DNA of 64,000 nt from an uncultured Candidatus Saccharibacteria bacterium. Its GTDB lineage: Bacteria > Patescibacteriota > Saccharimonadia > Saccharimonadales > UBA4665. The position numbers were made by a program, and so were the translations under genes. The DNA is taken from assembly GCA_963749175.1 (NCBI GenBank), contig CAVVLM010000006.1, positions 15,558 through 79,557 of the forward strand. Reading direction: 5' to 3'. Shown here piece after piece: positions 4,525 through 35,862 of this stretch (the first letter of the stretch is position 1; each line of letters begins with the position of its first letter). The notes beneath the pieces are model-generated. The model did no database searches. It saw nothing but the letters and a program-made list of their open reading frames with translations, and was not told where the DNA came from.

Positions 4525-4599
4525 AATATACCATATAAAGTAAGTATTTTAATTTAATGTATTCGACTTATCGACCAGATTAATCGTCTCGTTCTGATT

Positions 4600-8848: not shown

Positions 8849-9018
8849 TTTTACTGATACAAAATCATTAATCTCAAAATAATTTTCGCTAATTGCCTGT
8901 TTATGTAATAATAATTCTAATCCTTTTTGGGATATTCCTATCTGGTGATAGGTGGCTTGTTCAACAAGCAGCAGAGGTCCGGCTCTTGCTCCGAGACATT
9001 TGACAACAAGGAGGACTG

Positions 9019-9402
9019 GTGTCCCCTAAATTTGATGTGTTGATTACATCTGGCGACAACAAACATGATCTGATCGCTCAGCTAATTGACTGGGGCCGCA
9101 CTAATATGCGGCATCGCCAACCTTTCACCATAAAGATCAGACTGGCTCGACCGGCATCGGAAGAAATTGAGGTTAAAGTATTCATTCGAGGAATCACTAC
9201 AGCAGATGATAAAGGTATTAACTGGGTGATTACCGGTGAAATAACCATGGATAGCCTGATTAGAGCTGAGTTTCCCTGGTATTCGTATGGCTGGGTCAAA
9301 GAAATGAGGTTCTTTAAAGCCAACTATAATATCAGGGATCGCCAAGGCCTCATTGAGCCTTCCCCGAAAATAAATCCGCCGATCATTAGGCGCTCAATGT
9401 AA
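9019..9402 (+). CDS. hypothetical protein
   Basis: GTG start 4 nt after AAGGAGGA. 127 aa. Confidence 0.6.
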   Translation: MSPKFDVLITSGDNKHDLIAQLIDWGRTNMRHRQPFTIKIRLARPASEEIEVKVFIRGITTADDKGINWVITGEITMDSLIRAEFPWYSYGWVKEMRFFKANYNIRDRQGLIEPSPKINPPIIRRSM

Positions 9403-9426
9403 CTGGCTTATCTTATTTGGAAGATT

Positions 9427-9472
9427 GAGGGAGAGTGGTTACTGACTACTTTGGCAAACGCCACTCTCCCTC
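9427..9472 (+). terminator. 12-bp perfect hairpin after ORF 9019..9402
   Basis: GAGGGAGAGTGG (9427..9438) pairs with CCACTCTCCCTC (9461..9472), 22-nt loop. No clear U-tract. Confidence 0.45.
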
Positions 9473-9544
9473 CCGACCCATTAAATAATCCTCCTTGTTA
9501 ACTCCATAACATTATTAATTTAATTTGCTAAAATTTATAAGACT

Positions 9545-11323
9545 ATGAAAGAAATAATTCGAATAGTTAAATTCACTGGTTCGCTATGGCGTTATTACAT
9601 CGTCATATCGGTTTTTACGATCCTGCTGGCCGGTATGACCCAGTTGCAGCCGCTATTTACTAAAGGCGCGATTGACCAGATTACCAAAGCCATTGGCCAC
9701 GGTCACGCTAACGTCAAGTTAGTGGCGATTTTTGCAATCCTAATCTTTGTTACTGATGTTGCCCAAACCTTCTTTAGTAACATCGGCGGCTATTTTGGCG
9801 ATATGATGTCAGTCAAGCTGCAGCAGGTGTTTAGCTCGCGTTACTACGAGCACCTGCTAAGCTTGCCGCAGTATTATTTCGATACTGAGCTTACCGGAAA
9901 AATAATCAACCGGATGAACCGCGGCATCGGCCAAATCGGCCAATTCATGCAAATGCTCAGTAATAACTTCCTGCAATTTGTCTTTAGCACCATTTTCTCG
10001 CTAATAATTGTTGCTCTATATTCCTGGCCGGTAGCCTTGATGCTATTTGCCCTTTTCCCGATATTTATTCTATTTACCACTAAATCAAGCAAGCGTTGGC
10101 AGAAATACCAGAAAATCATCAATCAGCAGCAGGACGTGGCCAGCGGCCGCTTTAATGAGACTATCGGTCAAGTCAAAGTCGTCAAAAGTTATCTTCAGGA
10201 ACGCCGTGAGCTAAGTTTCTTCCGCAGCCGTTTTAACAAAATCGTTACTACTACCAGCCCGCAGAGTAAATTCTGGCACCGCCAGGACATTTATCGTCGT
10301 CTGGTATTAAATACCATCTTTTTAGGTGTCTTTGTCTATATCTTTGTCCAAACGGCCAATGGACACTTTTCACTCGGTACGATGGTGCTGTTAATCCAAT
10401 ACGCCATGTTAATTCGCATCCCGATATTTACTATCAGTTTCTTAGTCGATCAGACTCAGCGGGCGGTAGCTAATACCCGTGATTATTTTGAAGTCATGGA
10501 CGTCCAACCAGAAATTACCGATTCACCTAACGCTAAACCGTTAAAAGTTAAAAACGCCATGATCCAGTTTGATAACGTTAGCTTTGCCTACGATAAAACG
10601 CCAGTCTTAACCGACCTGGGCTTTACTATTGAACCGGATAGTAAAATTGCCCTAGTCGGCGAAAGCGGCGAAGGTAAAACGACAATTACCAGCCTACTGC
10701 TGCGCTTATACGAACCGCGCAGCGGCCAGATTATGATTGACGGCCAAGACATCACTAAAGTCACCCAAGCCAGTTTACGTAATGCAATCGGTGTAGTTTT
10801 CCAAGACCCGTCACTGTTTAGCGGCACGATCAAAGAAAATATTACTTATGCCAATCCCAGCGCTAGTGAGGCCCAAATTATTAAAGCTGCCAAAGCGGCT
10901 AACGCTGATGAGTTTATCGACAAGCTGGATAAAGGCTATTTAACCGAAATCGGCGAACGCGGACTTAAGCTTAGCGGCGGCCAAAAGCAGCGGATTGCCA
11001 TTGCCCGGGCTTTCTTAAAAGATGCACCGATCTTGATTCTCGACGAAGCCACCAGCAGCCTAGACAGTAAAAGTGAGCGGCTAGTGCATATCGGACTGGA
11101 ACGGCTGATGAAAGGCCGCACTACCTTGATTATTGCCCACCGCCTATCAACCATCCAAAATGTTGACCAAATTATTACGCTGCAAGGTGGCACAATTGAC
11201 GAAATCGGCTCGCCGGCCGATCTGGCAGTCAGCGGTGGTATCTACAGTCAACTATTGCGCTTGCAGCGTGGCCATGGCGAGCTCAAACAAAAACGGCTTA
11301 AAGAATTCGAACTTTCGAATTAA
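9545..11323 (+). CDS. ABC exporter, fused permease/ATPase (MsbA/lipid-multidrug type)
   Basis: Six N-terminal TM helices. Walker A GESGEGKTT, signature LSGGQKQRIAIARA, Walker B ILILDEATSSLD, H-loop IAHRLST. Confidence 0.95.
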   Translation: MKEIIRIVKFTGSLWRYYIVISVFTILLAGMTQLQPLFTKGAIDQITKAIGHGHANVKLVAIFAILIFVTDVAQTFFSNIGGYFGDMMSVKLQQVFSSRYYEHLLSLPQYYFDTELTGKIINRMNRGIGQIGQFMQMLSNNFLQFVFSTIFSLIIVALYSWPVALMLFALFPIFILFTTKSSKRWQKYQKIINQQQDVASGRFNETIGQVKVVKSYLQERRELSFFRSRFNKIVTTTSPQSKFWHRQDIYRRLVLNTIFLGVFVYIFVQTANGHFSLGTMVLLIQYAMLIRIPIFTISFLVDQTQRAVANTRDYFEVMDVQPEITDSPNAKPLKVKNAMIQFDNVSFAYDKTPVLTDLGFTIEPDSKIALVGESGEGKTTITSLLLRLYEPRSGQIMIDGQDITKVTQASLRNAIGVVFQDPSLFSGTIKENITYANPSASEAQIIKAAKAANADEFIDKLDKGYLTEIGERGLKLSGGQKQRIAIARAFLKDAPILILDEATSSLDSKSERLVHIGLERLMKGRTTLIIAHRLSTIQNVDQIITLQGGTIDEIGSPADLAVSGGIYSQLLRLQRGHGELKQKRLKEFELSN

Positions 11324-11340
11324 TTCTCGTTTATATAAAT

Positions 11341-11394
11341 CTTCGTTTCGCCGTTTACGGCTCATCAGCACAACTCATATATTTGTGAACGAAG
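11341..11394 (-). ncRNA. hammerhead ribozyme, type III (divergent copy)
   Basis: Minus-strand RNA: CUUCGU U|CACAA AUAUAUGAG UUGUG CUGAUGA GCCG UAAA CGGC GAA ACGAAG. Complete core, closed stems I and II, open 6-bp stem III. Confidence 0.8.
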
Positions 11395-11529
11395 TAATTA
11401 GGACAGAGTATATGGAGCGGGGAGAAATTTGCCATAAATGGCAGGCTCGACATATATCTGTCCAATTTGTAGAGTTAACGAGTGATCAGTAGATGGTCAT
11501 GAAAAAAGTAGCTTTGTAGATTAGGAGGC

Positions 11530-11841
11530 CTAAGAGGCTTCCTCAACCAGATCCATCAGTATGGCCTGCGTGCGGTTAGACAACCAGTTGAAAAGATCCG
11601 AATTCGTCCACAGCGTGAACGCAAAGTGCCTTTCGTCGGCAAGGTCGGACTCGACGTGGGTGGTGTTGTTTGGCTTGCCGTTTGCGAGAAAGACCAATGT
11701 GCTTAGGTGTGGCAATAATTGCCCGCGGATAAATTCATTGTCAACAGGCAGTTGGTATTCAACTGTGTTTAGCTGAATTATGCCCTTCGACACCTCCATA
11801 TAAAACTCTTCTGGCCGTGACTTAACCGATACGATTATCAT
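11530..11841 (-). CDS. hypothetical protein
   Basis: The ORF track starts at TTG 11853. The ATG at 11841 is preceded by GGGAGAG. 103 aa. Confidence 0.6.
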   Translation of the reverse strand: MIIVSVKSRPEEFYMEVSKGIIQLNTVEYQLPVDNEFIRGQLLPHLSTLVFLANGKPNNTTHVESDLADERHFAFTLWTNSDLFNWLSNRTQAILMDLVEEAS

Positions 11842-11925
11842 TAACTCTCCCAATTGTTAAGAGCGCTTACTTATATTTCAGTGCTCAGATGCGACTAATC
11901 GAAATGGTCTCAATAAGTCACGATT

Positions 11926-11963
11926 AGAATAACATATAATAAAGTATAAGTCAATTTTCTAGA
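11926..11963 (-). promoter_or_regulatory. sigma70-like promoter with TCTAGAAAA upstream block
   Basis: Minus strand: TCTAGAAAA-TTGACT-17 nt-TATTCT, upstream of ORF 11530..11841. The same TCTAGAAAATTGAC block occurs at 12910..12924. Confidence 0.45.
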
Positions 11964-12155
11964 ATATAGAAAAGATTATAATAGAAAAATAATCTTATAT
12001 GGCAGTTCACTAAACCTACTATCTTGATAATAAGCTTGGGGAACTGCCAGGAAGAGAAAGAAATAAGAATTGAGTGGATGCATAAATGCATACCATACTC
12101 GACGCTTAAGTCATCTCTACTTCCTGGGAAGCTCTCTGTTAACCGAATTGCGGCT

Positions 12156-12500
12156 TTAGCTCCATAGACTCTTTCGTCCGAGAACCAACCCTCCACAGTT
12201 GTAGAGTTCGATTTCTTCATCGGTAAAGTCCACAGGCTCAACTTCTGGAATGATACTACGCGGATCGTCGCATCTTACCCAGACTTCTTGAGGGTCGAAC
12301 CTCTCGAACTTGAAGTCGTGGCGGATATATCCGTTTTGGGCAGTGTATGGTGCGAGCTCATCGCCCAAAATGCCGTTTACCGGAAATGCCAATCTCAGCA
12401 AATTGATGTCGTACCCACGCCAAAGAATGTACTGGAAAGTGTATGGGTTTGTAACCCCGATGGTAACTGTCTCGACGACACGATACATACCATGGCGCAC
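12156..12500 (-). CDS. hypothetical protein
   Basis: 114-aa ORF. Downstream on the minus strand, an AAGATTAT/ATAATCTT hairpin plus T-rich run looks like a terminator. Confidence 0.6.
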   Translation of the reverse strand: MRHGMYRVVETVTIGVTNPYTFQYILWRGYDINLLRLAFPVNGILGDELAPYTAQNGYIRHDFKFERFDPQEVWVRCDDPRSIIPEVEPVDFTDEEIELYNCGGLVLGRKSLWS

Positions 12501-12575
12501 GAAAACTCCTTTAAGTAAAATTCAGGGACATTATCAAAGCTGACAAGATTTACTGCAAGGAGTGTTTTAGCTCCT

Positions 12576-12737
12576 TTAGTGCATGATGTAAGCTATTACC
12601 AAGAGCAAGAGGCCGAGAGCGCCAAAGAAAGTGGCCTCAGTCAACGTGCCAGCAGATAGGGTTTTTAGAGCCCTAATGCCTATGGCGCAACCAAAGAAAA
12701 AAATAATTAATCCGATGATTGCAAGAGCGAATCGCAA
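12576..12737 (-). CDS. small membrane protein (53 aa, below ORF-track cutoff)
   Basis: TTG start 7 nt after AAAGGA. Translation MRFALAIIGLIIFFFGCAIGIRALKTLSAGTLTEATFFGALGLLLLVIAYIMH gives two TM helices. Confidence 0.45.
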   Translation of the reverse strand: MRFALAIIGLIIFFFGCAIGIRALKTLSAGTLTEATFFGALGLLLLVIAYIMH

Positions 12738-12770
12738 TTTAACATCCTTTCATGAGTATGATAGACACAA

Positions 12771-12821
12771 TCTGTTGAAGAACAGCTAACGCGACATTAT
12801 CGTGTTAATAGTTCTTCAACA
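12771..12821 (-). promoter_or_regulatory. 12-bp perfect hairpin in the 5' leader
   Basis: CTGTTGAAGAAC (12771..12782) pairs with GTTCTTCAACAG (12810..12821). It lies between the promoter at 12887..12915 and ORF 12576..12737. No U-tract. Confidence 0.4.
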
Positions 12822-12840
12822 GACATATTACAGAGAGCTT

Positions 12841-12924
12841 GTTAATGTGCATCGGAGGTATTTGACAGCCTCAACGAAACATGGTTATAATAGCATAAGT
12901 ACAATATATTGTCAATTTTCTAGA
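12841..12924 (-). promoter_or_regulatory. promoter plus conserved leader element (copy A)
   Basis: Minus strand: TCTAGAAAA-TTGACA (12915..12910)-17 nt-TATTAT (12892..12887). Leader CAUGUUUCGUUGAGG...CCUCCGAUGCACAUUAAC is shared with 39681..39768. Confidence 0.5.
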
Positions 12925-12946
12925 TTTTATCCGAATGTACTAATAA

Positions 12947-14314
12947 TCAACTATTTGTAATCTGAACCAAACTGTGAATTACAGGGGTTAAATTATATTT
13001 ATCAATATTTATAATCGGTTTTTTAAATATGTAAGCCGAGTATGAAAAGTAATCTTGGGCCGCAGGATCGGTTGAGTCATAATCTCGGTAAGAAATAACA
13101 CCAATCTGAGTATTGCCGGTAAGCTTAACTTGGCCAGTAAAAGTAATCGTATTCAATTGTTGTCCCTGCAAATAACCCATACAGCCCATTTGACCCGGTG
13201 CGATGCAGCTATTGATGGCACCGGTTATAGTGCCAGTAGCATTATAAACGTTATAATCATGACTGGCTGGATAAGAAAAAGCGCTGCTGCGAGCCGTATA
13301 GGTAGTGCCGTTGCCATCCATGACGATATTATTTGGCACCACAAATTGATTAGTGCCAGCACCGCCATAATCACCCCAGCCCGTGGCATCAAGCTCCAAA
13401 TTGCCGCTGTTTAAAATGGTAATAGTACTATTACCAAGTCCATCAATTGAACTAGGCGCCGTAGTGCTGCTGGAGCTAGTGGCCGCCTCACCCAAGTGAA
13501 GTACTGCCCCACTGGCGATAGTGGTATTACCCGATAAATTAGGACTTGATGTCGGGAAGTTGGCATTGCTGTTAGGGTCTAAATAAATATTGCTTTTGCC
13601 GCTTAGGCTTTGGAATATGATTTCGCTACTAGGTGCGGCTTGGTTAGTTTGCAAATGGACGGTTGAGCCCTGGCTTAAATAGGTTTTACCCTGAAAGCTT
13701 AAAAGCAGCGTATTTTTAGATTGAATTTTAATTGAAACATTTTTGCCAAAAGTAATGTCATTATAAATAATGGCAATAGAATTATTTCTAATATTGTTTA
13801 TTATTTGCCCGGAGACGTGCAAGTTATCACCGCCGATATACGGTGACGCATTGCTGGTAGCGGCATTTGCTGCAACCGGACTGTTAAAAACGATATTTTT
13901 AACACTTAAATTACGAATATTATCCCAAAGATAAACCGTATAGTTAGTATTATATGGTTGCGGCACAACAGTCGAATGCTTGGCGTTAATATCTTTGATA
14001 TTAAATACCAGCGTTTGCCCGTTAATTGGTCGGCCAAGTGACCAGTTTTTGGTATTACTCCACAAATCATCATTGCCTTTACCGGTCCATGAATTGGTGG
14101 CATGGCTTAAAATGACATAGCCGATAATGCTCAAAATAAATAAAAAACCAATAGTTCCCAGCAATACTAACGATACCGTTTTGAGTTTTGACCTTTTAGG
14201 TTTAGCGTCGGGTTTTAGAGCCATAGTAGAATCGCTAGTCGGTGTCGGGTAAATCTTAGCCGGGTCCATATTAGCAACAAAAGCTGGTTTTTCAGGTTTG
14301 TCAGACTGTTCCAT
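12947..14314 (-). CDS. membrane-anchored surface protein, Asn/Thr/Ser/Gly-rich beta-rich ectodomain
   Basis: 455 aa. Basic N-terminal tail, one TM helix (TVSLVLLGTIGFLFILSIIGYVIL), then a repetitive N/T/S/G-rich sequence. Confidence 0.7.
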   Translation of the reverse strand: MEQSDKPEKPAFVANMDPAKIYPTPTSDSTMALKPDAKPKRSKLKTVSLVLLGTIGFLFILSIIGYVILSHATNSWTGKGNDDLWSNTKNWSLGRPINGQTLVFNIKDINAKHSTVVPQPYNTNYTVYLWDNIRNLSVKNIVFNSPVAANAATSNASPYIGGDNLHVSGQIINNIRNNSIAIIYNDITFGKNVSIKIQSKNTLLLSFQGKTYLSQGSTVHLQTNQAAPSSEIIFQSLSGKSNIYLDPNSNANFPTSSPNLSGNTTIASGAVLHLGEAATSSSSTTAPSSIDGLGNSTITILNSGNLELDATGWGDYGGAGTNQFVVPNNIVMDGNGTTYTARSSAFSYPASHDYNVYNATGTITGAINSCIAPGQMGCMGYLQGQQLNTITFTGQVKLTGNTQIGVISYRDYDSTDPAAQDYFSYSAYIFKKPIINIDKYNLTPVIHSLVQITNS

Positions 14315-14384
14315 ATTTCTTCATCACAGTAGCACAGAAAGTCAGCTGGGTTCAACTAATATTGAGCAGTATTTTAGATAATTA

Positions 14385-14930
14385 TTAATCTGATTCAACA
14401 GCCCGCTCAGTGGCGACTTTTCGGCTGATAATATCCATAATTTGTTTGCCAACCGAATGTGAATAGCCCATTGGTTCGTCGTTTTGTTCAATCATCAAAT
14501 CAATATATTCCATATAAGCCAGGGACATGTTATAGAAGTTTAGAGGTATGCCCGATTCGCTTAAAGTGCTTCTAAGTTTATCGGCGGTATGAGCTACGGC
14601 CTGTAAGATCTCCTGACGCTTAGATTCGGCTCTACTATTGTCTTCCAAGTCGTCATAACTAAAACCCACCAAAGCCGATTCATAATGGAAAATACTTAAT
14701 GTCCGTAAGCTATCATAACGGCCTTTAGAATCAACTCTCGAAAACTCCAGCTGCATTGGGCCGTCGCCGTTTGGATTATCTGGAGTCGTTTGTAACTCCT
14801 TAACTATTCCTATAAAAGTTGGAATTAACCACTCATCGGTAACCGATAAATTTTCCGGATCACGGTCAAACAGTAGGATTACAAATTCTCGGGGATCGGC
14901 TGTGGCGGCTAATTGTTCGCGTATTTCCAT
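14385..14930 (-). CDS. hypothetical acidic protein
   Basis: 181-aa ORF with ATG start. Confidence 0.65.
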   Translation of the reverse strand: MEIREQLAATADPREFVILLFDRDPENLSVTDEWLIPTFIGIVKELQTTPDNPNGDGPMQLEFSRVDSKGRYDSLRTLSIFHYESALVGFSYDDLEDNSRAESKRQEILQAVAHTADKLRSTLSESGIPLNFYNMSLAYMEYIDLMIEQNDEPMGYSHSVGKQIMDIISRKVATERAVESD

Positions 14931-14987
14931 TTCAATATATTATAATATTATGTAAGTATTGTAAATTATATTAAATCTTTAATCTAT

Positions 14988-15389
14988 TTATTGGTCGTAT
15001 GAGAATGGTTTTAGAGTATCAATGACTCTTTGACCAAATGTGTGATTTATCATGCAACCGGCACAGCGCAGACTGGCATCGCTGGGGCAATCTAGCACTA
15101 CTAATCTTTCCACTTGTTCCACGTGCTCATGTTCCGGAATGCACCCAGTCCAATGCAAAGATATTGATTGATCGGCTACGTGTAAATTATTATCTTCCGG
15201 TGTTTTGCCGCTTTCATCTAGAAGTGCAGGCATTTTTGATACTTGAAATCTAATTGCCGATATAGCAACACCTGCGTTGATTTCCGGGCCCATTGTAGTC
15301 AATGAGTCGAAAACTTCTTTATAGGGCAAGCAACTCTCATTATGTAACGGACCGGGCCTACCTATTTGTTTGCCAATTGCGGTTACCAT
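14988..15389 (-). CDS. hypothetical Cys/His-rich protein
   Basis: 133-aa ORF; HWTGCIPEHEH...DCPSD...CAGC. Confidence 0.6.
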   Translation of the reverse strand: MVTAIGKQIGRPGPLHNESCLPYKEVFDSLTTMGPEINAGVAISAIRFQVSKMPALLDESGKTPEDNNLHVADQSISLHWTGCIPEHEHVEQVERLVVLDCPSDASLRCAGCMINHTFGQRVIDTLKPFSYDQ

Positions 15390-15556
15390 AATAATTGCTC
15401 CCTAAATTACCTTATAGTTAATTATATAGCCAATATTGGTTAACAACATAATATTTTTGGCATACATCAAAATTTACTATTAACGATTGTATACAAAATT
15501 CCCTTAAATATAATTAAACCAAATATATTTGTTATTAATGCTAAAATATAGTAATC

Positions 15557-16036
15557 ATGAGTTTAAGCATTGAAAAACGATTATTTCGGGAGACAACTGC
15601 CCTACTATTAATTGGCGGATTAGCCCTAGAAGGTTGTTCTAATAACTCTTCTAGAACTAGCATTCAAACTTCGGGTAAGGTAGCTTGTAAGACAGTTAAG
15701 TTTGAGGCATTAAAAGGAAGTCCGGCAGAAGTTGAGATCGGAGTTTATCCAGAACTAGCTAATGGAAAATTTGTTGTTACTAGATGGCAGTACATCGGTA
15801 ATAAGCCGATCACTGGTACGCCAGTATCTGGAGCAATTATGGAATTTCCTAGTCATAATATTTCTAAAATTAGCAACATGTCGACAATTTCCATACCAAC
15901 TTCTCAATCAGAAACAGTAGTTTTCGCATCAGTAAACGAGAATGGTCAAAATATTTCTTGTCCGCCCACTATCATGTATTTCAATAATAAAACGTATACT
16001 GCTATTCCTCAGTTGCCACCCAAAGATAGAATTTAA
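15557..16036 (+). CDS. secreted protein / possible lipoprotein
   Basis: N-terminal hydrophobic segment ending LALEGCSNN (atypical lipobox). 159 aa. Confidence 0.6.
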   Translation: MSLSIEKRLFRETTALLLIGGLALEGCSNNSSRTSIQTSGKVACKTVKFEALKGSPAEVEIGVYPELANGKFVVTRWQYIGNKPITGTPVSGAIMEFPSHNISKISNMSTISIPTSQSETVVFASVNENGQNISCPPTIMYFNNKTYTAIPQLPPKDRI

Positions 16037-16183
16037 TAATATTAAGGATGCACTTCTTATGCCAGTTTAAGCTTTATTTGCTATTTCGTTGACAATTATG
16101 GCGTAAATTTGGATCTATGATCGTAGGTAGTATATATTAGAAAACTAACTTCGTTTTTATTATTAATATAGTAAAAATGTTGC

Positions 16184-16768
16184 ATGTCTGAAACTCTTCC
16201 GCCAAATCGATATCTATCTCAAGCAGAAATCAATAAATATGGATTTACCGAGCGTTTAATGGCGGATACGGCTGATATTAATAATTTCCAAGCCAATCTC
16301 CTAGCTTATTTTGGCCCCAATTTAATTAAACCTTTGCCAGAAGCGCCGGATCTGGTATTTCTAGGCAATTATGAATCAGCCCGGGTAATTATAGATAACA
16401 GTATCAGCCATGGCCTTGGACGAGCGGCAGTAATGGCGACAATTTGGGAAAAGATGCCTAAAGACTTATGCCAAACCCAATATGGGACAGTTAGCAGGAT
16501 TGAAGTCAAGACTTTCATTAACAGTTATCAAGGACATATTCTTCTGCACATTGACCCGAAAGAACGTTTTATTAGCCAAAGAGCTGAGCTAACAGACGTA
16601 ATTGATGAAATATATGACGCCAAACAGCAATGGCGTCAGTTTAATCCGACGCTGCGCATAGCACGCTTACTTAATACGGCATTTTCGACTGAAATAGAAA
16701 GTTATTTAGCTAACCCAAAGCTTATTCATTTTAGTAGATTGCTCCCCAAAAAACATAAATCAAAATAA
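16184..16768 (+). CDS. hypothetical protein
   Basis: 194-aa ORF with ATG start and lysine-rich tail. Confidence 0.65.
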   Translation: MSETLPPNRYLSQAEINKYGFTERLMADTADINNFQANLLAYFGPNLIKPLPEAPDLVFLGNYESARVIIDNSISHGLGRAAVMATIWEKMPKDLCQTQYGTVSRIEVKTFINSYQGHILLHIDPKERFISQRAELTDVIDEIYDAKQQWRQFNPTLRIARLLNTAFSTEIESYLANPKLIHFSRLLPKKHKSK

Positions 16769-16795
16769 ATTTATCACCTCAAAGTTTATTTATTG

Positions 16796-16846
16796 TTACT
16801 TTCGTCCTTTTGGACTCGTCAGCATGAACGCACATTCATGGAGTAA
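16796..16846 (-). ncRNA. hammerhead ribozyme, type III
   Basis: Minus-strand RNA: UUACU C|CAUGAA UGUGCG UUCAUG CUGACGA GUCC AAAA GGAC GAA AGUAA. All invariant core positions present. Confidence 0.85.
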
Positions 16847-16956
16847 GGCGATGGTGTATCGTTGGGTGCAAGCACAGTGCTCGCTCGACCAACGGTACAC
16901 CCCTCGGGTTCCAGCATAGCAGGCTTTATTCCCTTTAATTTTTAGGGAATAAAGTT

Positions 16957-17235
16957 TTATGGCAAAAGCCAGGAGTGTATGCCGATCATCTCGCTGATAA
17001 TGCCGTTAAGCAGCATTATGCAAGTGCCAATCAACAGAAGAAGGAGGATCAACTTGGTAAGCAGGCGGAGATTACTGTTGGGCCTGATTAACAAAAAGAG
17101 TATGAAAAGCGCAAAGCAAAAACCGACAATGAACCACATCGGGAAAAACCTCCTAATATCTTGTTGCCAGAGCAATCGGATAAGCTCAGAAAATGTTGGA
17201 TTAGTGGCCAGTATAAGTTTGAGCCAATTGCTCAA
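16957..17235 (-). CDS. small membrane protein
   Basis: 92-aa ORF with TTG start and no clear RBS; an internal ATG (MWFIVGF) is possible. Two to three TM helices. Confidence 0.5.
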   Translation of the reverse strand: MSNWLKLILATNPTFSELIRLLWQQDIRRFFPMWFIVGFCFALFILFLLIRPNSNLRLLTKLILLLLLIGTCIMLLNGIISEMIGIHSWLLP

Positions 17236-17316
17236 TCAAATGTCAGCTCACTCTGGGTTCTCATCACCACAGATATATTTTTACAACTAAACATATATGC
17301 ATAATGATGAGAGAAG

Positions 17317-17380
17317 GGCGAGTGCGACGGGTGTTACGAAAGGGGGCCTTAAGGGGCACCGTCCGATCGTAGCACTCGCC
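17317..17380 (-). terminator. GC-rich 9+7-bp hairpin 3' of the 17481..18888 gene pair
   Basis: GGCGAGTGC (17317..17325) pairs with GCACTCGCC (17372..17380); inner GACGGGTG/CACCGTC stem. Followed on the minus strand by CUUCUCUC. Confidence 0.4.
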
Positions 17381-17480
17381 ACACTCAAACCCTTACCCCT
17401 GGTATTCCCAGAGGATTCTAACTGAATTTTATGGCTTCAGATTGCCGCGTATGTTTCGGTGAATTATTTAGGAGGTTTTC

Positions 17481-17870
17481 CTAGGATTGTCCCAAAATTA
17501 CGAACATCTTTCCGGAAATTCCGTTTGGCTGTTCATAGGGGACCCATTGGAACACCACGTGCTCACCTGGTTGAAGCGAGGCTCGGCCGGTAGTGTAGAC
17601 TGGATCGGAAGTACAAGGGGCGGGACTAGACGGGAATGCGATGCACGCTTCCAGACCCTGGGCATCTACCTTGACGATAGTGCCGTTATAAGTCTGAGGT
17701 GTTGACGTTGAGTTGGCTGAAAAGAGCCAAGCACCAATGGCAAAACCTACCAAAAACGTACATGCAACATACAAAACAATCAAGTGAGTCGGGAAACCCC
17801 GTTTAGCTCTGCCGACTGCTCTGCCTGCTGTTCTGCTCCCTGATACTCGGGTGACATTTCTGGTTGCCAT
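17481..17870 (-). CDS. membrane-anchored protein (Arg-rich N-terminus, one TM helix)
   Basis: 129 aa; HLIVLYVACTFLVGFAIGAWLF helix. One nt separates it from the upstream ORF. Local GC is visibly higher than the flanks. Confidence 0.65.
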   Translation of the reverse strand: MATRNVTRVSGSRTAGRAVGRAKRGFPTHLIVLYVACTFLVGFAIGAWLFSANSTSTPQTYNGTIVKVDAQGLEACIAFPSSPAPCTSDPVYTTGRASLQPGEHVVFQWVPYEQPNGISGKMFVILGQS

Positions 17871-17871
17871 T

Positions 17872-18888
17872 TCAGCACCAAGCCCAGGTCAGTCCAAGAC
17901 TCACAGTTATCGAGTCACTTACATTGGGCGGAGAGTGGATGATGTCAACATCAGGAGCACTTTGGGTGTTACCTGAGCAACCTCTCCATTCCGCACCGGA
18001 TCCTGTCGTGGGGTCTGACCATTCTGGTCCAATGCCGCTAGGACAGACTGTTTGCGAAGATCCAACTCCAATGCCATTCCAGCCGACGGATTCGTTATAG
18101 GTTTGGCAAGAACCAGTATTGACGAAGCCGCTAGGCTGCCATTCAACAATGGAGTTTCCCTTCACATAGTTGTCGTTGGCATCGAGCCTGGTCAGATTAT
18201 TCCACCAGGTGCCATTGTGACCCGAAGACGTGATCGAATCGCCGATGTACCAATCACCACCGTTTTGCTGAACGAGTGTCTGAATGTCACATGCTCGACC
18301 AGTTGCTTGTCCACCGTTGGCGTGCAGAATCCATACGCAAGGCGTACCGATAATTGTCGTAGCCGCGGTAGACGACGTGACACTTTTAGACAATCTTGCC
18401 TTAACAGCAGTACCGGTAGATGAAACGGCTTTAAAAGCCACGCCGGTAGTAGTAGCCATTGCTTGAGCGACCATTTCCTCAGCTTGAGACTGAGAAAAGC
18501 CGACGGCGATGGCATTGGCGTAGACGTCGCTGAGGCTAAGACTTGCCACAGTCCCGTTAGTCTTCGTGTTCGGGGTGGTAATTGATGCCCCGGTTGCGCT
18601 GTAGGAGTAGGTCATGCCTGGCGCGCCGATGAAGGTATAGCTGTTGCACCCAGCTTTGATGGATGTCAACGTTTGTCCGTTGACGTGTGTCTGCTTGATG
18701 ACAACAGCCTTGTTCGCGGCGGTGTCATTTAACTTCGTATTACAGGAAGGCGCCTTGATATGGGTGCCTTTGGGTGCGGGTTGAGAACTAGTGGGCGTAG
18801 AAGCGCCGGCACTAGCCGATTGGACTACAATTACTGCAAGCGGTAGTGTCAGGCAAGCCGTCCACAACCGAATACGATTTACTCGCAT
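17872..18888 (-). CDS. secreted protein of unknown function
   Basis: The ORF track starts at 18933. The ATG at 18888 follows AAGGAG and gives signal peptide MRVNRIRLWTACLTLPLAVIVVQSASA. Cys- and Gly/Thr/Ser-rich. GC-richer island. Confidence 0.7.
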   Translation of the reverse strand: MRVNRIRLWTACLTLPLAVIVVQSASAGASTPTSSQPAPKGTHIKAPSCNTKLNDTAANKAVVIKQTHVNGQTLTSIKAGCNSYTFIGAPGMTYSYSATGASITTPNTKTNGTVASLSLSDVYANAIAVGFSQSQAEEMVAQAMATTTGVAFKAVSSTGTAVKARLSKSVTSSTAATTIIGTPCVWILHANGGQATGRACDIQTLVQQNGGDWYIGDSITSSGHNGTWWNNLTRLDANDNYVKGNSIVEWQPSGFVNTGSCQTYNESVGWNGIGVGSSQTVCPSGIGPEWSDPTTGSGAEWRGCSGNTQSAPDVDIIHSPPNVSDSITVSLGLTWAWC

Positions 18889-19134
18889 TACTCCACACTC
18901 CTTAGGAGGGTACTCGGGATTCCGTCCTAACATGATGCTGAATTACAGTTTTACATAATTCACCTTTTGTTAAGGTACCATACTAATATTAGATAATCAT
19001 AAAATCAAGTAAATGTCAATAGTCATTTAACCTTAAACATGTTAAAAATATGTTAAATGACTAGACTGATTACAATAAGCATATAATTAAAAACTCTGAA
19101 AATCAGTGATGTAGCGTTTTAAATTAACAAATAG

Positions 19135-19578
19135 TTAATTTTCTCTCATTAACCAGTAATCATAATGACGGGTCGGTAGTTTGATGCGGACTATTAATAC
19201 CGGTGTTTCATAGCTGCCGCCAGTAATAGTGCCTTTAAGTACGCTATATGACAAGTCTGGCGTCTGTGCACTGAATTTACTACCCTTATTAATAGCTAGC
19301 GTTACAGTAGCCGTTTCAGCGGCTTCCGGCTGCCTAAATTCAGTGGCACCGATAAAGCCCCTACTAACCCCAGCATGATAGCGTAAACTTTGGTAATCAA
19401 ATAACTCTTCCAGCGGGGCACTGTAAGCTGCGACTTGAATATCATTTGTCCAACCAGCTGTACCAACAAAACCGTCAACAATCGGGAAACATTCTCCTGG
19501 TTGACAGTTCTCAACTAACTCTTGTAAAAACTCTGGATCCAGAGTTGGTTGTTGATTATAACTTTCTGGGCAAGACAT
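19135..19578 (-). CDS. hypothetical protein
   Basis: 147-aa ORF with ATG start. Confidence 0.65.
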   Translation of the reverse strand: MSCPESYNQQPTLDPEFLQELVENCQPGECFPIVDGFVGTAGWTNDIQVAAYSAPLEELFDYQSLRYHAGVSRGFIGATEFRQPEAAETATVTLAINKGSKFSAQTPDLSYSVLKGTITGGSYETPVLIVRIKLPTRHYDYWLMREN

Positions 19579-19804
19579 AACCCTTATATTTTAAACTCCT
19601 AAAATTCAATGGCAACCGTTTTCGGTAAACAAAATCAGATCGTATCGAGGAATTTTAATATATTAGTATAATACGCAAATAGCTAATGTAATATGCAAAC
19701 ATTTTCAGAGAGTCTAATCAGTAATAATATTTACTTATTTTATTTGCAATTTATTATACGATAGACCCTTATACTTAAAGCTTAAACGCTTTGGTGTAAG
19801 TAGT

Positions 19805-21262
19805 TTGACAACCGAGTTCTCCATTTCTCCAAAAACAAGGGGGGTTAAATTGATTAGTCTGTTGCAAGGGCTATGGCAGCACCGCGCCTCACGTTTTTTG
19901 GTGACTGCCGCAATCTGCACAGTAATCCAGGAAGCAATACTGTTTGGCCTGATCCACTGGCACCTTAACCGGGTGCTGGCTGATGGAATTGGCTTTGGGT
20001 TGGCAGCTCAGGCAAGCTTTGTCCTTAGCAGTAGCTTGACCTGGGGAGATCGTAAGTTAAACCAATCCAAAAGATCAATTACTACCCGCTGGCTGACGTT
20101 TAATTTTGTCGCCGGCATCGTGCTGCTAGTCAACGTCGGCGTTTTCGCCTTTGTTGTCCAGCACGATAAACCGTTTGTCCGCTTTTTCTCTAGTCTTTTC
20201 TCGGTTTTGCCTAAGCACGTTGACGCCGCTGTTTTAGTGGCTTCAATAGCCGGCATACTGATTGGAGCTGTTGTCTCATTCAACTTGAATAATTTGATCA
20301 CCTTCCGGCAAGCAAAGACTATCGAGGTGTCCTTAGCTACAGTAGAGCCTCTCAATACGCAAGCTATGTATGGCCTGGCCAAACAATTGGTCCAAGGCTT
20401 GTCGTTGGCGTATTTTATGCCGGCCTATAACGAAGGTGGCAATCTGCGCTATATGGTTGAAGATGCACTGGTATTTATCCGATCGCTTAAGTTTAGCGAA
20501 GCCAGAATCATTATCATAAATGATGGCTCATCGGATGATACAGCGGCTGTGGCTGACGAACTGGCTTTGCGCCATACAGAAGTTGTGGCCCATCACCGAA
20601 AGCACAATGGCGGCTATGGCCGGGCTTTAAAAACCGGTTTCAGAGCTGTCGTTGCCGCGCGGACCATTGCCGGACAGCCGTTCGACCTTTGGGCATTTTC
20701 CGATGCTGATCGACAGTTCCGGGTTGAAAGCTTGAGCTCACTGTTAGTGGCTCAAATTCAATCTAATGCCGATTTGGTAGTCGGTTATCGAATAGACCGC
20801 CAAATCAACGAATCCAGGTTTCGCTATTATTTGGGCCGTTTTTGGCACCTATATAGCCGAGCTGTGGTAGGACGTGATTTGTTGGTCGTTAGAGATGTTG
20901 ATTGCGGCATGAAACTAGGTTGCGTCAACTCTCTGGCCATTTTCGTTGAAAAGTTATTCGGTGAAAAAGCCGCTATTTCGCCCGAGCTGATTGCTCGCAG
21001 CAAGCTGGCTGGCCATATCATCGCTGAACAACCGGTAGAATATCTACCGCGAATCGCTGGTAAGTCCACCGGCAGTAACCCGAAAGTCATGTTGGTTTCC
21101 GGGTTTCATATAATACTAGTCGGCCTGGCGATACGAACCGAACGTCGCTTAGGTAGGACCTGGCAGTTTGCCAAGAATTTGGAACGTGACATCGTCCATG
21201 AAGTTGACATCGTCGAAGGCCTGATCCGCGGAGGTGAGGATATTGCTACTGAATCTACCTGA
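19805..21262 (+). CDS. GtrA-like membrane domain fused to family-2 glycosyltransferase (polyprenyl-phosphate sugar synthase type)
   Basis: N-terminus RFLVTAAICTVIQEAILFGL...SFVLSSSLTWGDRK is GtrA-like. The C-terminal domain FMPAYNEGGNL...INDGSSDDT...FSDADRQF is GT2 (DPM1/ArnC/GtrB-like). TTG start. Confidence 0.85.
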   Translation: MTTEFSISPKTRGVKLISLLQGLWQHRASRFLVTAAICTVIQEAILFGLIHWHLNRVLADGIGFGLAAQASFVLSSSLTWGDRKLNQSKRSITTRWLTFNFVAGIVLLVNVGVFAFVVQHDKPFVRFFSSLFSVLPKHVDAAVLVASIAGILIGAVVSFNLNNLITFRQAKTIEVSLATVEPLNTQAMYGLAKQLVQGLSLAYFMPAYNEGGNLRYMVEDALVFIRSLKFSEARIIIINDGSSDDTAAVADELALRHTEVVAHHRKHNGGYGRALKTGFRAVVAARTIAGQPFDLWAFSDADRQFRVESLSSLLVAQIQSNADLVVGYRIDRQINESRFRYYLGRFWHLYSRAVVGRDLLVVRDVDCGMKLGCVNSLAIFVEKLFGEKAAISPELIARSKLAGHIIAEQPVEYLPRIAGKSTGSNPKVMLVSGFHIILVGLAIRTERRLGRTWQFAKNLERDIVHEVDIVEGLIRGGEDIATEST

Positions 21263-22832
21263 ACGACAAGTTTTAGGGCGAGACCGGTCAAAACAAGCAA
21301 TCTGGATTAGCGCTTTCGTGCTGTCCGTGGTTGCCTTGACTATCGCCTACGCCCACAAGGCAATCCTGTTATACGGCGATACCATATCGCATTTGGAAAT
21401 TGCCCGCCGGACTGACTCGATGCTAGCCAGCTCACCGATTAATGCCCCTGGGCAGCTCGGTGCCGTTTGGCTACCATTGCCGCATCTGCTAATGATGCCG
21501 TTCATATGGGACAACACGCTGTATCAGGATGGCCTGGCAGGCAGTATTATATCGATGCTGGCTTTCGTTCTGGCAGTCGTGTTTACCTACGGCATTGTGG
21601 TGCAGTTGACTGGACAGCGTTGGCCTGGGATTGTGGCAGCAGCTATATTTGGCCTAAACGCCAATATGCTGTACATGCAAACAACCCCGATGACCGAATC
21701 GCTGCTGTTCTGCTTACTGGCAGCCATGACTTACTACACCCTGAAATGGGCGGATACAGATCGGACTAAGTACTTGGTATATGCCGCTTTTGCTGCCATG
21801 CTGGCTTCGTTGACCCGCTATGAAAGCTGGATCATCATCGCCTGTATGGCGGTAGCTGTTACCGGCATTGCCTGGACATCTCATAAGAGTATGTCCAAAA
21901 AACTGCATTGGTTTCGGGTAAGCGACCGTGTCCTGCTGGCTGGCCTTCTCGGTATCTCGGGAATTTTCTTCTGGCTAGTCTGGAACGTCGTTTTCTTCGG
22001 TAATCCGTTCTACTTCCAAGACGGTCTGTATGCCAAACCGGCGCTGTGGCTTAGCAGTCACGAACCGGCAATTGGCCACCTGGGGGTTGCTATAAAGACC
22101 TACTGGTTTGCCGTCAAGGACAATATCGGTTGGCCAATTCTGGTACTGGCGGGCTTAGGCTTAATCGCCTTTATCGTAGTCGAGTGGTGGCAGAAACGCG
22201 CCATCGCCAGAAGTCTACCAGTGTTGGCTCTACTGGTGATTTTCCCGTTTTTTGTTTATTCGATTTACAAGGGCGAACGACCCCTACATATCACGCCGTT
22301 AGAGCCCGACCTTTACAACGTTAGGTTCGGCCTAATCATGCTCCTGCCGACAGCAATTCTAGCTGGTTATCTGGTGGGAGTACTGCAAAAGCGCCGTATC
22401 CTGATGTATGCAGCCAGCGGTCTGGTGATAGTGGCGGCAATTGGCATATCAAGCGTCATGTTCCGTCAGCAACCAATCACCTATCGTGAAGCGCTCGGCA
22501 GTCAAAGCCCGATCGAAGCCCAAGTCGCCGCCGCTTTTGTCAAGAATTACACTGGCGGACGAATTTTGATGCAATCTTTCGGCAACGAAGGCATTGCCTT
22601 CAAAATACTAAACACCAACGACCTGATTTACGAAGGTAGTTATCAGCAATGGCAAACAGCCTTGCGCAGTCCATCGACGGACCACATTAGTTGGATTGTC
22701 GATCGCTGTGGGCCAAACGCCGACGCTGTCTGTACGCACGTCAACAAAGGTGAATTTGCCCGCTACAAACTTGTCTGGCGTTCGTCCAATGGTATCTACA
22801 GTATCTACAAGCTGAACTGGAGGCCAGCATGA
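21234..22832 (+). CDS. GT-C-fold membrane glycosyltransferase (ArnT/PMT-like, lipid-carrier dependent)
   Basis: About 12 TM helices with a soluble C-terminal domain. The start is uncertain (GTG 21234 overlaps the upstream gene by 29 nt). Confidence 0.7.
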   Translation: MRILLLNLPERQVLGRDRSKQAIWISAFVLSVVALTIAYAHKAILLYGDTISHLEIARRTDSMLASSPINAPGQLGAVWLPLPHLLMMPFIWDNTLYQDGLAGSIISMLAFVLAVVFTYGIVVQLTGQRWPGIVAAAIFGLNANMLYMQTTPMTESLLFCLLAAMTYYTLKWADTDRTKYLVYAAFAAMLASLTRYESWIIIACMAVAVTGIAWTSHKSMSKKLHWFRVSDRVLLAGLLGISGIFFWLVWNVVFFGNPFYFQDGLYAKPALWLSSHEPAIGHLGVAIKTYWFAVKDNIGWPILVLAGLGLIAFIVVEWWQKRAIARSLPVLALLVIFPFFVYSIYKGERPLHITPLEPDLYNVRFGLIMLLPTAILAGYLVGVLQKRRILMYAASGLVIVAAIGISSVMFRQQPITYREALGSQSPIEAQVAAAFVKNYTGGRILMQSFGNEGIAFKILNTNDLIYEGSYQQWQTALRSPSTDHISWIVDRCGPNADAVCTHVNKGEFARYKLVWRSSNGIYSIYKLNWRPA

Positions 22833-32878: not shown

Positions 32879-33094
32879 ATGACAACACTTAGTATTTCAT
32901 TGGATGATAAGTTAAAGAAAGAAATAGAACGTTTCTCTAAAGAAGACGGCGTTTCTAAGAGTGTAGTGGTACGTAGATTACTTCAACGAGCTTCATGGGA
33001 ACGGACTTGGAATAACATGTCTGCCCAGTTACGCATTAAGCTAGACGAACTGAATCTTAGCTCCGCGGATGATGTAGAAAAATATCTGGGATGA
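32879..33094 (+). CDS. ribbon-helix-helix (CopG-like) antitoxin
   Basis: 71 aa; N-terminal TLSISLDDKLKKEIERFSKEDGVSKSVVVRRLL is RHH-like. ATGA overlap with the PIN gene. Confidence 0.8.
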   Translation: MTTLSISLDDKLKKEIERFSKEDGVSKSVVVRRLLQRASWERTWNNMSAQLRIKLDELNLSSADDVEKYLG

Positions 33095-34300: not shown

Positions 34301-35413
34301 CTAACGGGCGGCTATATAAGTTTTCGATGGTGTAACTTTACGCATAACTAATTGGTAAAGTTGGATATGTCTAGCTCTAAACGCACCGGCACAAATGAGC
34401 AAGTAAAATTTCCACATCCGGTAAAAACGTTCATCATAAACGTCTTTGATTTCGTTATAGTGGGCATTAAAATTTTTATACCAAGCCAGCAGAGTTTTAT
34501 CATAATCCGGCCCTATATTTTGAACATCTTCAATGATCAAACGGTTTTCGACCGCATCGCTGATTTGAGACAATGCCGGTAAAACTCCACCTGGGAAAAT
34601 ATACTTACTGATCCAGGGGTCAATAAACTTACTAGGACTATTAGCTGAGATGGTGTGATGGAGCATGATGCCATCGTTGCTCAGCAGCCTATTACATATA
34701 TCAAAAAAATTCTTATAATTTTTTGATCCAACATGCTCTAACATACCGATTGAAGTAATTCGATCGTATTTACCGCTGATTTGACGGTAATCTTTCTGAA
34801 GAATATTTACTGTCAGTCCTTTTGTATTGGCTTTAGCTAGCTCAACCTGCTCGGAAGCTGGTGTTATACCAGTCACATGAACGCCATACTTGGTAGCGGC
34901 AAACTTAGCAAAACCTCCCCAGCCGCAACCGATATCAAGTAACTTCATGCCTCGTTTAAGCTCCAGTTTTTGGCAAATGAGATCCAGCTTATTTTCTTGA
35001 GCCTGATCAAGATTTTTAGCACCCTTCCAGTAGGCGCAGCTGTATATCATACGAGCCCCAAGCATTCTTTGATACAAATCGTTGCCAATATTATAATGAT
35101 GTTCTGCATTCTGACGAGCGCCTTTAATAGTCTGGGTCTTAAACTGTGATGGGATGGCAGCTAGAAGCAACATCGGACTAACTTTAACTTGTTTGCGAAT
35201 ATCTATACTTAGTAATCTTTCAATTAACTGATCGATACTCTTACAATTCCACCAGCCGTCCATGTATGACTCGCCTAGACCAAGCTCTCGGTAGCGCAAT
35301 ACTTTGCTATAGAAACGATTATCTAGAACATCAATATCTTGAGGCTTTGAACCTCCAACATCAATGCCCGCAACTTTCAGTAATTCCTTGACTCGTTTCT
35401 CCGTAGAGTTCAT
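34301..35413 (-). CDS. cfa: cyclopropane-fatty-acyl-phospholipid synthase
   Basis: HYNIGNDLYQRMLG..MIYSCAYW, LLDIGCGWGGFAKFAA (SAM motif I), TSIGMLEHVG. The ORF track starts at 35485; ATG 35413 (MNSTEKRV) gives 370 aa. Confidence 0.9.
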   Translation of the reverse strand: MNSTEKRVKELLKVAGIDVGGSKPQDIDVLDNRFYSKVLRYRELGLGESYMDGWWNCKSIDQLIERLLSIDIRKQVKVSPMLLLAAIPSQFKTQTIKGARQNAEHHYNIGNDLYQRMLGARMIYSCAYWKGAKNLDQAQENKLDLICQKLELKRGMKLLDIGCGWGGFAKFAATKYGVHVTGITPASEQVELAKANTKGLTVNILQKDYRQISGKYDRITSIGMLEHVGSKNYKNFFDICNRLLSNDGIMLHHTISANSPSKFIDPWISKYIFPGGVLPALSQISDAVENRLIIEDVQNIGPDYDKTLLAWYKNFNAHYNEIKDVYDERFYRMWKFYLLICAGAFRARHIQLYQLVMRKVTPSKTYIAAR

Positions 35414-35465
35414 TAAATAAAGTATATCAAAAAGATTTACTTCTCGATGGAATAATGGGATTTGT

Positions 35466-35750
35466 TTAATAGAAAAATTTAGCAATTACTATAATAAGCA
35501 CTATTAACCCAAGAGCTTTTCGAAATTTGTTTAATCCCGTTGTTAACTCCATAAAAGCCCAAACAAAAATAAAAGCAGTACTTAATTGTCGACTGCCGTT
35601 TTTATAATTACCCACGGGTAGTATTAATGCTAGAATCTCAAAAATAATCCAACCACTCAGGGCAATATTGGGCTTTTGCCAAATTACAATTCGGCCACTT
35701 TTATCTTTGCAGAAATAACCAACAGGATCTTTCTTAATATTAGATAACAC
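35466..35750 (-). CDS. small membrane protein
   Basis: 94 aa, GTG start, three hydrophobic helices. Confidence 0.55.
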   Translation of the reverse strand: MLSNIKKDPVGYFCKDKSGRIVIWQKPNIALSGWIIFEILALILPVGNYKNGSRQLSTAFIFVWAFMELTTGLNKFRKALGLIVLIIVIAKFFY

Positions 35751-35843: not shown

Positions 35844-35862
35844 ATTAATATAAGCCTTAACT

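Follow-up and report, generated by a model that had tools for sequence, protein, structure and literature searches.

Within a 64,000-nucleotide (nt) stretch of contig CAVVLM010000006.1, referred to here as the window, we analyzed a candidate hammerhead ribozyme, termed HH1, that occupies positions 16796 to 16846 of the minus strand. It follows a small open reading frame (ORF) at 16957..17139 (-), whose product of 60 amino acids (aa) has two hydrophobic segments and matches no Pfam family. The mechanically called ORF reaches a TTG at 17235, but a start at the ATG at 17139, which stands 9 nt after AGGAGG, is more likely. A series of minus-strand ORFs from 19578 down to 16957 ends with this small ORF, and HH1 starts 110 nt past its stop codon. 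Facing it is a convergent gene, 16184..16768 (+), which encodes 194 aa of no known family and is also a called gene on Logan contig ERR11630400_551526. The initial annotation, made from the sequence alone, had placed the motif about 110 nt 3' of the stop of ORF 16957..17235, behind a small membrane-protein gene and between convergent genes. This description is correct.

Read directly from the minus strand as RNA, HH1 (16846..16796) begins with the 5' strand of stem III, UUACU (16846-16842), followed by the cleavage-site base C17 (16841). Stem I is formed by CAUGAA (16840-16835) and UUCAUG (16828-16823), which enclose loop 1, UGUGCG (16834-16829). The core segment C3-A9, CUGACGA (16822-16816), leads into stem II, in which GUCC (16815-16812) and GGAC (16807-16804) are joined by loop 2, AAAA (16811-16808). 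G12 A13 A14 (GAA; 16803-16801) and the 3' strand of stem III, AGUAA (16800-16796), complete the motif. Stems I, II, and III comprise 6, 4, and 5 base pairs (bp), all of them Watson-Crick, and the pairs next to the core (C1.1-G2.1, G10.1-C11.1, and A15.1 at 16800 with U16.1 at 16842) are intact. The base at position 17 is C and not G, as is characteristic of the hammerhead class.

The sequence proposed earlier matches this reading base for base. Likewise, the claim that every invariant hammerhead position is present is confirmed for C3-A9, G10.1-C11.1, G12-A14, A15.1-U16.1, and C17, and the topology is indeed type III, with stems I and II closed by loops and stem III open. The description of the individual stems holds with one difference. 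A stem I of 6 bp with a 6-nt loop, stem II, and an open stem III can all be traced in the sequence, whereas in the minimum-energy fold stem I gains a U-G pair, which lengthens it to 7 bp and shrinks its loop to 4 nt. The centroid fold of the isolated motif contains both stem I and stem II. HH1 possesses all of the sequence and structural features used to accept hammerheads in the criteria given in PMC3088659. HH1 is very probably a genuine self-cleaving hammerhead, with cleavage activity expected from its sequence and a predicted cut between C17 (16841) and C1.1 (16840).

How often such a motif arises by chance was estimated with a relaxed descriptor, which demands CUGANGA and GAA, a minimum of 3 bp in stem II and of 4 bp in both the stem I hairpin and stem III, and any base other than G at position 17. 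This descriptor has three matches in the window, all on the minus strand, corresponding to HH1 (16796-16846) and to two further copies termed HH2 (38594-38644) and HH-A (11341-11394). When the window was shuffled 300 times with dinucleotides preserved, it gave 0.027 matches on average, and seven of the shuffled sequences had any match at all.

The initial annotation had also called for a search of the minus strand with the Rfam hammerhead models, and had named a miss as an outcome that would count against its interpretation. That outcome occurred. Nothing above threshold was found at HH1, and Rfam at its gathering thresholds returned no match in the whole window. In permissive mode, HH1 is covered only by a partial Hammerhead_1 match of 16.4 bits. 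The RF00008 score at this site, displaced by the Hammerhead_1 match, is below 16.4 bits, whereas 48.5 bits are needed to reach the gathering threshold. The permissive RF00008 scores of three window copies are 30.7, 20.9, and <16.4 bits, and the copy at 11341-11394 is unlisted. The remaining low-scoring permissive matches in the window (microRNA, small nucleolar RNA, and CRISPR repeat) were set aside as hairpin noise. We attribute the miss at HH1 to the high threshold of RF00008 and to a model consensus that is unlike this sub-family, rather than to a defect in the motif. Because the window copies score under the 48.5-bit gathering score, the sub-family escapes Rfam-based annotation. The RF00008 cutoff is an operational limit of one model and is not a defining property of the ribozyme class.

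Despite the Rfam miss, the hammerhead interpretation is supported by a model of the sub-family itself, by compensatory changes, and by covariation across the family. The covariance model, termed R2, was built from 103 relatives in other genomes and includes no sequence from the window. It assigns 70.5 bits to HH1 (an E-value of roughly 1e-17), 69.8 bits to HH2, 68.2 bits to a fourth copy termed HH4, and 38.9 bits to HH-A, and the best non-hammerhead site in the window reaches 13 bits. An alternative explanation holds that HH1 only resembles a hammerhead, by chance or as a decayed remnant, and does not cleave, as might be suggested by the lack of an Rfam match at the gathering threshold and by a weak stem III. 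However, this explanation is very improbable given that three descriptor matches are observed where 0.027 are expected per window, that an independent model scores HH1 so highly, that all core positions are intact, and that compensatory changes are seen both between paralogues and across 124 relatives.

These relatives come from a survey for CTGANGAGTCCAAAAGGACGAAA conducted with one genome per species, which yielded at least 119 loci. Their taxonomic spread may reflect the order in which genomes were scanned, and all family counts given here for covariation, context, and flanking sequence are among the matches listed in that survey. Nearly all of the loci among these matches reside in Patescibacteria genome bins, mostly of Saccharibacteria, and a few are labelled as Gammaproteobacteria or other phyla. 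The type III layout is found in nearly all of the 128 matches listed.

When 124 of these sequences are aligned, 89.3% of the cells are paired, compared with 63.6% for shuffles and 34-44% for slid structures. The covariation score of 0.682 is likewise far from the values for shuffles (0.169, with none of 500 reaching 0.682) and for slid structures (0.07-0.12). Stem I is paired in 96% of cases and covaries at all six of its pairs, and five of the six variable pairs in stem III covary. Stem II and loop 2 were fixed by the search pattern, and the covariation result applies to stems I and III. Core positions C3-A9 and G12-A14 are invariant among the 124 aligned relatives, and U16.1-A15.1 is retained in 119. 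Among 120 relatives, the base at position 17 is most often C (86), with U (24) and A (10) making up the rest and G never occurring. Loop 1 keeps the consensus UGUGYR while stem I covaries; its first two positions are U in 115 and G in 113 of the 120 sequences.

Some additional patterns were observed outside the conserved core. Family-wide, there is a strand asymmetry wherein the 5' strand of stem III and the preceding 10 nt are pyrimidine-rich and G-poor and the 3' strand is purine-rich, with A and T predominating over sparse G and C in the 15 nt beyond it. Two flanking motifs are overrepresented in part of the Patescibacteria copies. Among the 128 copies of loci L001-L119, 11 have TGCTTGT at 14-18 nt ahead of position 17, where about 0.5 would be expected. 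In 17 of the 128, GTTCWTT is found in the 30 nt that follow GAAA, with 14 of these at a distance of 5-9 nt (about 0.9 expected).

The window holds four type III hammerheads, all on the minus strand, that span 11.3-38.6 kilobases (kb), and each of the three besides HH1 comes after a minus-strand ORF and a structured spacer. HH2 (38594..38644, minus strand) is near-identical to HH1, and differs by carrying U at position 17 and by a compensatory change from A-U to G-C in stem I. It lies 90 nt past the stop codon of a 276-aa ORF (38735..39565) whose product has a signal-peptide-like N terminus, and the spacer between them is structured (fold z of -3.10). HH4 (35862..35917, minus strand) has the core CUGAUGA and a stem III, UCUAcACU/AGUUAGA, with a bulged C and an outer part unlike that of HH1. 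Because of this bulge, HH4 was missed by the relaxed descriptor, and it was recovered by Rfam in permissive mode, in which it aligns end to end with the RF00008 model at 30.7 bits. It is situated between an 82-aa membrane-protein ORF (36055..36303) and two further genes, ORF 35466..35750 and cfa (34301..35485), with all of these on the minus strand, and its spacer has a fold z of -3.20.

The divergent copy HH-A (11341..11394, minus strand) reads CUUCGU-U-CACAA-AUAUAUGAG-UUGUG-CUGAUGA-GCCG-UAAA-CGGC-GAA-ACGAAG. All three of its stems differ in sequence from those of the other copies around the same core. It is located 18 nt from the end of a convergent ABC-transporter gene, 9545..11323 (+), and has a spacer fold z of -3.10. 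A relative that shares its stem II was found in locus L095, which is described below. Matches to the stem II sequence GCCG-UAAA-CGGC in viral contigs were considered and rejected as relatives of HH-A, because the 22 matches have another topology with a closed helix after GAAA. In the minus sense, about 830 nt upstream of HH-A (11324-12155) include no called gene on the Logan contig, and the mechanical ORFs 11530..11853 (107 aa) and 11951..12241 (96 aa) belong to no known family. Given this lack of a called gene and of recognizable families, the RNA terminated by HH-A may be partly noncoding.

Over 45 nt, three of the window copies share about 90% identity. The sequences flanking the four copies do not align with each other, such that only the ribozyme of about 50 nt is common to them, and a larger repeat or mobile cassette around the copies was ruled out on these grounds. 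Two independent Logan short-read contigs of the same organism, from run ERR11630400 (L169 and L170), end inside HH1 and HH2, near window positions 16825 and 38596, as would be expected if near-identical 45-nt ribozyme repeats break the assembly graph.

The genetic context of the family provides clues regarding function. Among the related loci, the upstream neighbor shares the strand of the hammerhead in 78 cases and is opposed to it in 19, and at co-directional junctions the hammerhead is in the sense orientation in 45 cases and antisense in seven. A median of 91 nt (interquartile range 68-124 nt) separates the hammerhead from the stop codon before it. Of the four window copies, three face a convergent gene, and the placement of HH1 after a gene and between convergent genes is what the family typically shows. 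The proteins encoded upstream are short and mutually unrelated. Because the largest blastp cluster among 110 upstream ORFs has no more than three members, the hammerhead is not tied to one protein family. An association with transfer RNAs was also sought, and there is none in the window and no consistent neighbor of this kind in 60 related loci.

The conserved partner of these ribozymes is an RNA structure located upstream. The 60 nt preceding the hammerheads fold more stably than the 60 nt that follow (-14.8 vs -8.5 kcal/mol, p = 1e-12), and the upstream hairpin ends at a median of 2 nt before the hammerhead. All four stop-to-hammerhead spacers in the window are structured, with z values from -3.1 to -5.7. 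For HH1, the spacer (16847-16958) folds at -44.7 kcal/mol with a z of -5.67, and none of 200 shuffles is as stable. In this fold, an 11-bp hairpin (16924..16954, minus strand) that is the first in the 3' untranslated region (UTR) directly follows the stop codon of the small ORF. Next is a long imperfect hairpin (16849..16906, minus strand) that ends 2 nt before stem III of HH1 and has no U-run after it. Terminator-like sites were sought beside HH1, HH2, and HH4, and none was called for these three copies. A further arrangement is present in the complete Saccharimonadia chromosome OY970327.1 (L095, 4420-4760), where a single convergent junction carries two facing hammerheads, at 4533-4589 (+) and 4624-4681 (-), each after its own long hairpin and 35 nt apart. 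The minus-strand member resembles HH-A in having the stem II GCCG-UAAA-CGGC and a 9-nt loop 1.

Judging from sequence and context, we favor, with moderate confidence, a role for HH1 in forming the 3' end of the transcript and insulating it from what lies downstream, with the ribozyme acting in the 3' UTR of the last gene of the operon. Transcription would pass the stop codon at 16957 and then two hairpins that are not followed by an intrinsic terminator. Once AGUAA, the 3' strand of stem III, had been transcribed, the three-way junction could fold, probably aided by a contact between loops 1 and 2 like that of the hammerhead from the satellite RNA of tobacco ringspot virus (sTRSV). In the hammerhead class, such a tertiary contact gives fast cleavage at physiological Mg2+. 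The 2'-hydroxyl of C17 would then attack the adjacent phosphate and break the RNA between 16841 and 16840.

The established chemistry of the ribozyme class predicts the ends of both products. The upstream messenger RNA (mRNA) would finish with the hairpin, CC, and UUACUC and would bear a 2',3'-cyclic phosphate, a structured end that 3' exonucleases should handle poorly. We propose that the hairpin at 16849..16906 is the protecting structure for this end. The downstream piece would carry a 5'-hydroxyl (5'-OH) and would consist of the ribozyme body and any read-through RNA, which would lie antisense to the convergent gene 16184..16768. The short, AU-rich stem III would let the cleavage products separate, since a weak 5-bp helix should favor the release of two products. 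Together, the hairpin and the hammerhead would constitute a protein-independent module that makes the 3' end of a transcript and insulates it. Where the next gene is co-directional, as with HH4 (35862-35917), the cut would separate two cistrons. The effects on mRNA stability and on read-through are what the context data lead us to expect.

There are several points that weigh against this reading of HH1. Stem III has 5 bp with one G-C, and it is missing from the centroid fold of the isolated motif. The curated Rfam hammerhead models stay below threshold at this site. The context statistics rely on crude gene calls (greedy longest ORFs), and 30 of 134 hammerheads fall inside a spurious ORF. In addition, the upstream hairpin could be a terminator that needs no U-run, in which case the hammerhead would see only read-through RNA. 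Finally, in about half of the family the hammerhead has a same-strand gene after it.

This last observation invites the alternative that a real hammerhead acts on the 5' end of the downstream RNA. Cleavage might strip off the upstream RNA and create a defined 5'-OH leader for the following gene, as with an insulator like the engineered RiboJ, or might expose the RNA to destabilization by a 5'-to-3' exonuclease, and the upstream hairpin would then be incidental or a leaky terminator. In agreement with this possibility, 59 family members have a same-strand downstream gene at a median distance of 102 nt, HH4 lies 111 nt before the same-strand ORF 35466..35750, and the downstream sequence is A-rich and poor in G and C, as in an unstructured leader. 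Furthermore, a hammerhead of a haloarchaeal virus is located 13 nt before a start codon and a mapped 5' end coincides with its cleavage site, according to PMC3088659. However, for HH1 and two of the other three window copies the next gene is convergent and not on the same strand. The spacing also varies much less toward the upstream stop codon (interquartile range 68-124 nt) than toward the downstream start (36-223 nt), and the conserved partner structure is upstream, not downstream. We therefore regard a role at the 5' end as unlikely, and return to 3'-end formation as the preferred function.

A connection to phages must also be considered, because the same form of hammerhead occurs in 48 IMG/VR viral contigs (L121-L168). 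In 41 of 49 phage-contig matches, a GC-rich hairpin is combined with a type III hammerhead, which also accords with a role at the 3' end. The hairpins in viral contigs nearly always stand directly before the hammerhead and are terminator-like but have no U-run (e.g., GTGTCTTCAAAGACAC and GGGGCTTCGGCCCC), and an A-rich stretch comes after the hammerhead. It might be argued, then, that the hammerheads are passengers of phage-derived or mobile DNA, such as remnants of prophage transcript processing or a small cassette, and have no role for the host genes they flank. The link of bacterial hammerheads to prophages and to small non-conserved ORFs in PMC3088659 and PMC6155905 fits this notion. So do the lack of Pfam, NCBIfam, and PHROG families among the genes flanking the window copies and the roughly 90% identity of three copies over 45 nt.

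Several findings speak against this explanation. The copies share only the ribozyme of about 50 nt within flanks that cannot be aligned, and no integrase, transposase, or phage structural gene is near them. Searches for PHROG, Pfam, and NCBIfam phage hallmarks or defense families among the ORFs flanking the hammerheads gave no meaningful match, although many of these ORFs cannot be annotated and a degraded mobile element could lie among them. Megablast likewise found no match for 14000-20000 among phage records or for 9000-24000 among plasmid records. The genes of the region are ordinary chromosomal ones, including cfa, a DHA2 (MFS) efflux pump, an ABC transporter, glycosyltransferases, and PIN and Fic proteins. 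Those at 19805-24526 are syntenic with a Saccharibacteria chromosome (CP023991.1), with proteins about 50% identical, which together with the hammerhead relatives suggests a Saccharibacteria-like host. The strong bias in orientation relative to host genes, like the intactness of the cores, points to selection in place. On balance, the passenger explanation is improbable.

Some features of the surrounding genes were also recorded. None of the nine ORFs in the run at 12947-19578 (40-455 aa) that encloses HH1 has a Pfam family. Eight of the nine lack a PHROG family, with 15557-16036 matching phrog_902 only marginally (E 0.0079), and the four that were scanned have no NCBIfam match. Elsewhere in the window, a PIN-domain protein (33091-33522, plus strand) adjoins a Fic/DOC-family protein (33574-33960, minus strand), and these are probably toxin components of toxin-antitoxin pairs that are unrelated to the hammerheads. 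A gene for a 1619-aa protein (25268-30127, minus strand) with PQQ-like beta-propeller, DUF1349, and GH43_C2-like domains has a G+C content of about 50%, compared with about 40% in the rest of the window.

The occurrence of multiple hammerheads in one region raises the additional prospect that same-strand pairs excise an RNA segment, which is then circularized by an RtcB-type ligase as in plant retrozymes. In retrozymes, the circular RNAs are flanked by type III hammerheads. The four window copies all share one strand, and HH2 and HH4 are 2.7 kb apart. Moreover, PMC3088659 considers that bacterial clusters might give circular or spliced products, although its authors looked for such products and found none. 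Plus-strand ORFs (36950..38494) stand between HH2 and HH4, and because there are several of them, a single minus-strand transcript across this interval is unlikely. The other spacings between copies are 5 to 19 kb. For these reasons, circle formation is an exceedingly remote prospect.

Additional hammerheads are common inside the same 8-kb loci of relatives. The Saccharibacteria locus L116, which is syntenic with window positions 19805-24526, has a hammerhead after its gene cluster, and R2 finds none at the matching place in the window. Because the L116 hammerhead lacks a counterpart there, the positions of these ribozymes are evolutionarily labile. A broader proposal, which we make only tentatively, is that in Saccharibacteria, other Patescibacteria, and phages, a stable hairpin plus an sTRSV-like type III hammerhead serves as a dedicated 3'-end module at many transcription-unit ends, where it may replace intrinsic terminators or operate alongside them. 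Cleavage of the nascent RNA would take place right behind the protective hairpin. A 5'-to-3' exonuclease that removes the 5'-OH RNA could perhaps help to dislodge the polymerase in a “torpedo”-like manner. If true, bacterial hammerheads would thereby have a housekeeping function of a general kind.

The DNA of bacteria and phages has been known to encode hammerheads since 2010-2011, and their role is still listed as an open question in reviews (PMC6155905). The window adds four chromosomal hammerheads that were missed by standard Rfam annotation and ties them to a very large sub-family with the shape of the sTRSV ribozyme. Their reproducible context, about 90 nt past a same-strand stop codon, after a hairpin without a U-run, and often facing a convergent gene, makes the idea of “transcript processing” concrete and testable. 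An enrichment in Patescibacteria, if upheld in an unbiased survey, would bear on how reduced genomes end their transcripts. Full-text literature searches for hammerhead or self-cleaving ribozymes in Saccharibacteria, Patescibacteria, or the candidate phyla radiation returned no relevant paper. We consider the pattern at the level of the family to be the part most worth following up.

Comparisons with known systems help to place HH1. The closest in form is the sTRSV hammerhead (GenBank M14879), whose sequence, GTCACCGGATGTGCTTTCCGGTCTGATGAGTCCGTGAGGACGAAAC, is quoted in PMC9519601. Both RNAs are of type III, with a 6-bp stem I and a 6-nt loop 1 (UGUGCU in sTRSV, UGUGCG in HH1). They also share an identical stem II (GUCC/GGAC), a 4-nt loop 2, a CUGAUGA-type core, a short open stem III, and C17. 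They differ in the sequence of loop 2, which is AAAA in HH1 and GUGA in sTRSV, and at N7, which is C in HH1 and U in sTRSV. The settings are also dissimilar, in that sTRSV is a circular RNA replicon that cuts multimers, whereas HH1 resides in bacterial chromosomal DNA after a protein gene. The Rfam family RF00008 (Hammerhead_3, clan CL00010) represents the same class and topology as the window copies, even though these score below its gathering threshold.

Among bacterial examples, hammerheads of bacteria and prophages have been described as clustered, as flanking small non-conserved ORFs, and as often near prophage genes (PMC3088659 and PMC6155905). For such clusters, it was proposed that the ribozymes convert long transcripts into gene-length mRNAs, and the examples tested do cleave (PMC3088659). 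The window copies resemble the clusters of Perreault et al. 2011 (PMC3088659), with several copies within tens of kb that are co-oriented with the ORFs upstream of them, which have no known family. In contrast, the published clusters are mostly near integrases or prophages and many are of type II, whereas the window copies are all of type III with no phage gene nearby, and their host appears to be Saccharibacteria-like. The tight association with an upstream hairpin receives no mention in the passages of PMC3088659 or PMC6155905 that term searches brought up.

The arrangement proposed for HH1 also has an engineered parallel. When an sTRSV hammerhead is placed after viral complementary DNA to trim the 3' end of the transcript (PMC9519601), the RNA ends with the 5' strand of stem III and the cut defines the 3' end, which is the geometry we propose for HH1. 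The engineered design is man-made and has no protective hairpin upstream, and so it serves as a mechanistic analogy and not as evidence. HH1 adds to a known ribozyme class, and its particulars are the sTRSV-like type III form, the chromosomal, non-phage setting, the apparent abundance in Patescibacteria, and the tight partnership with a hairpin.

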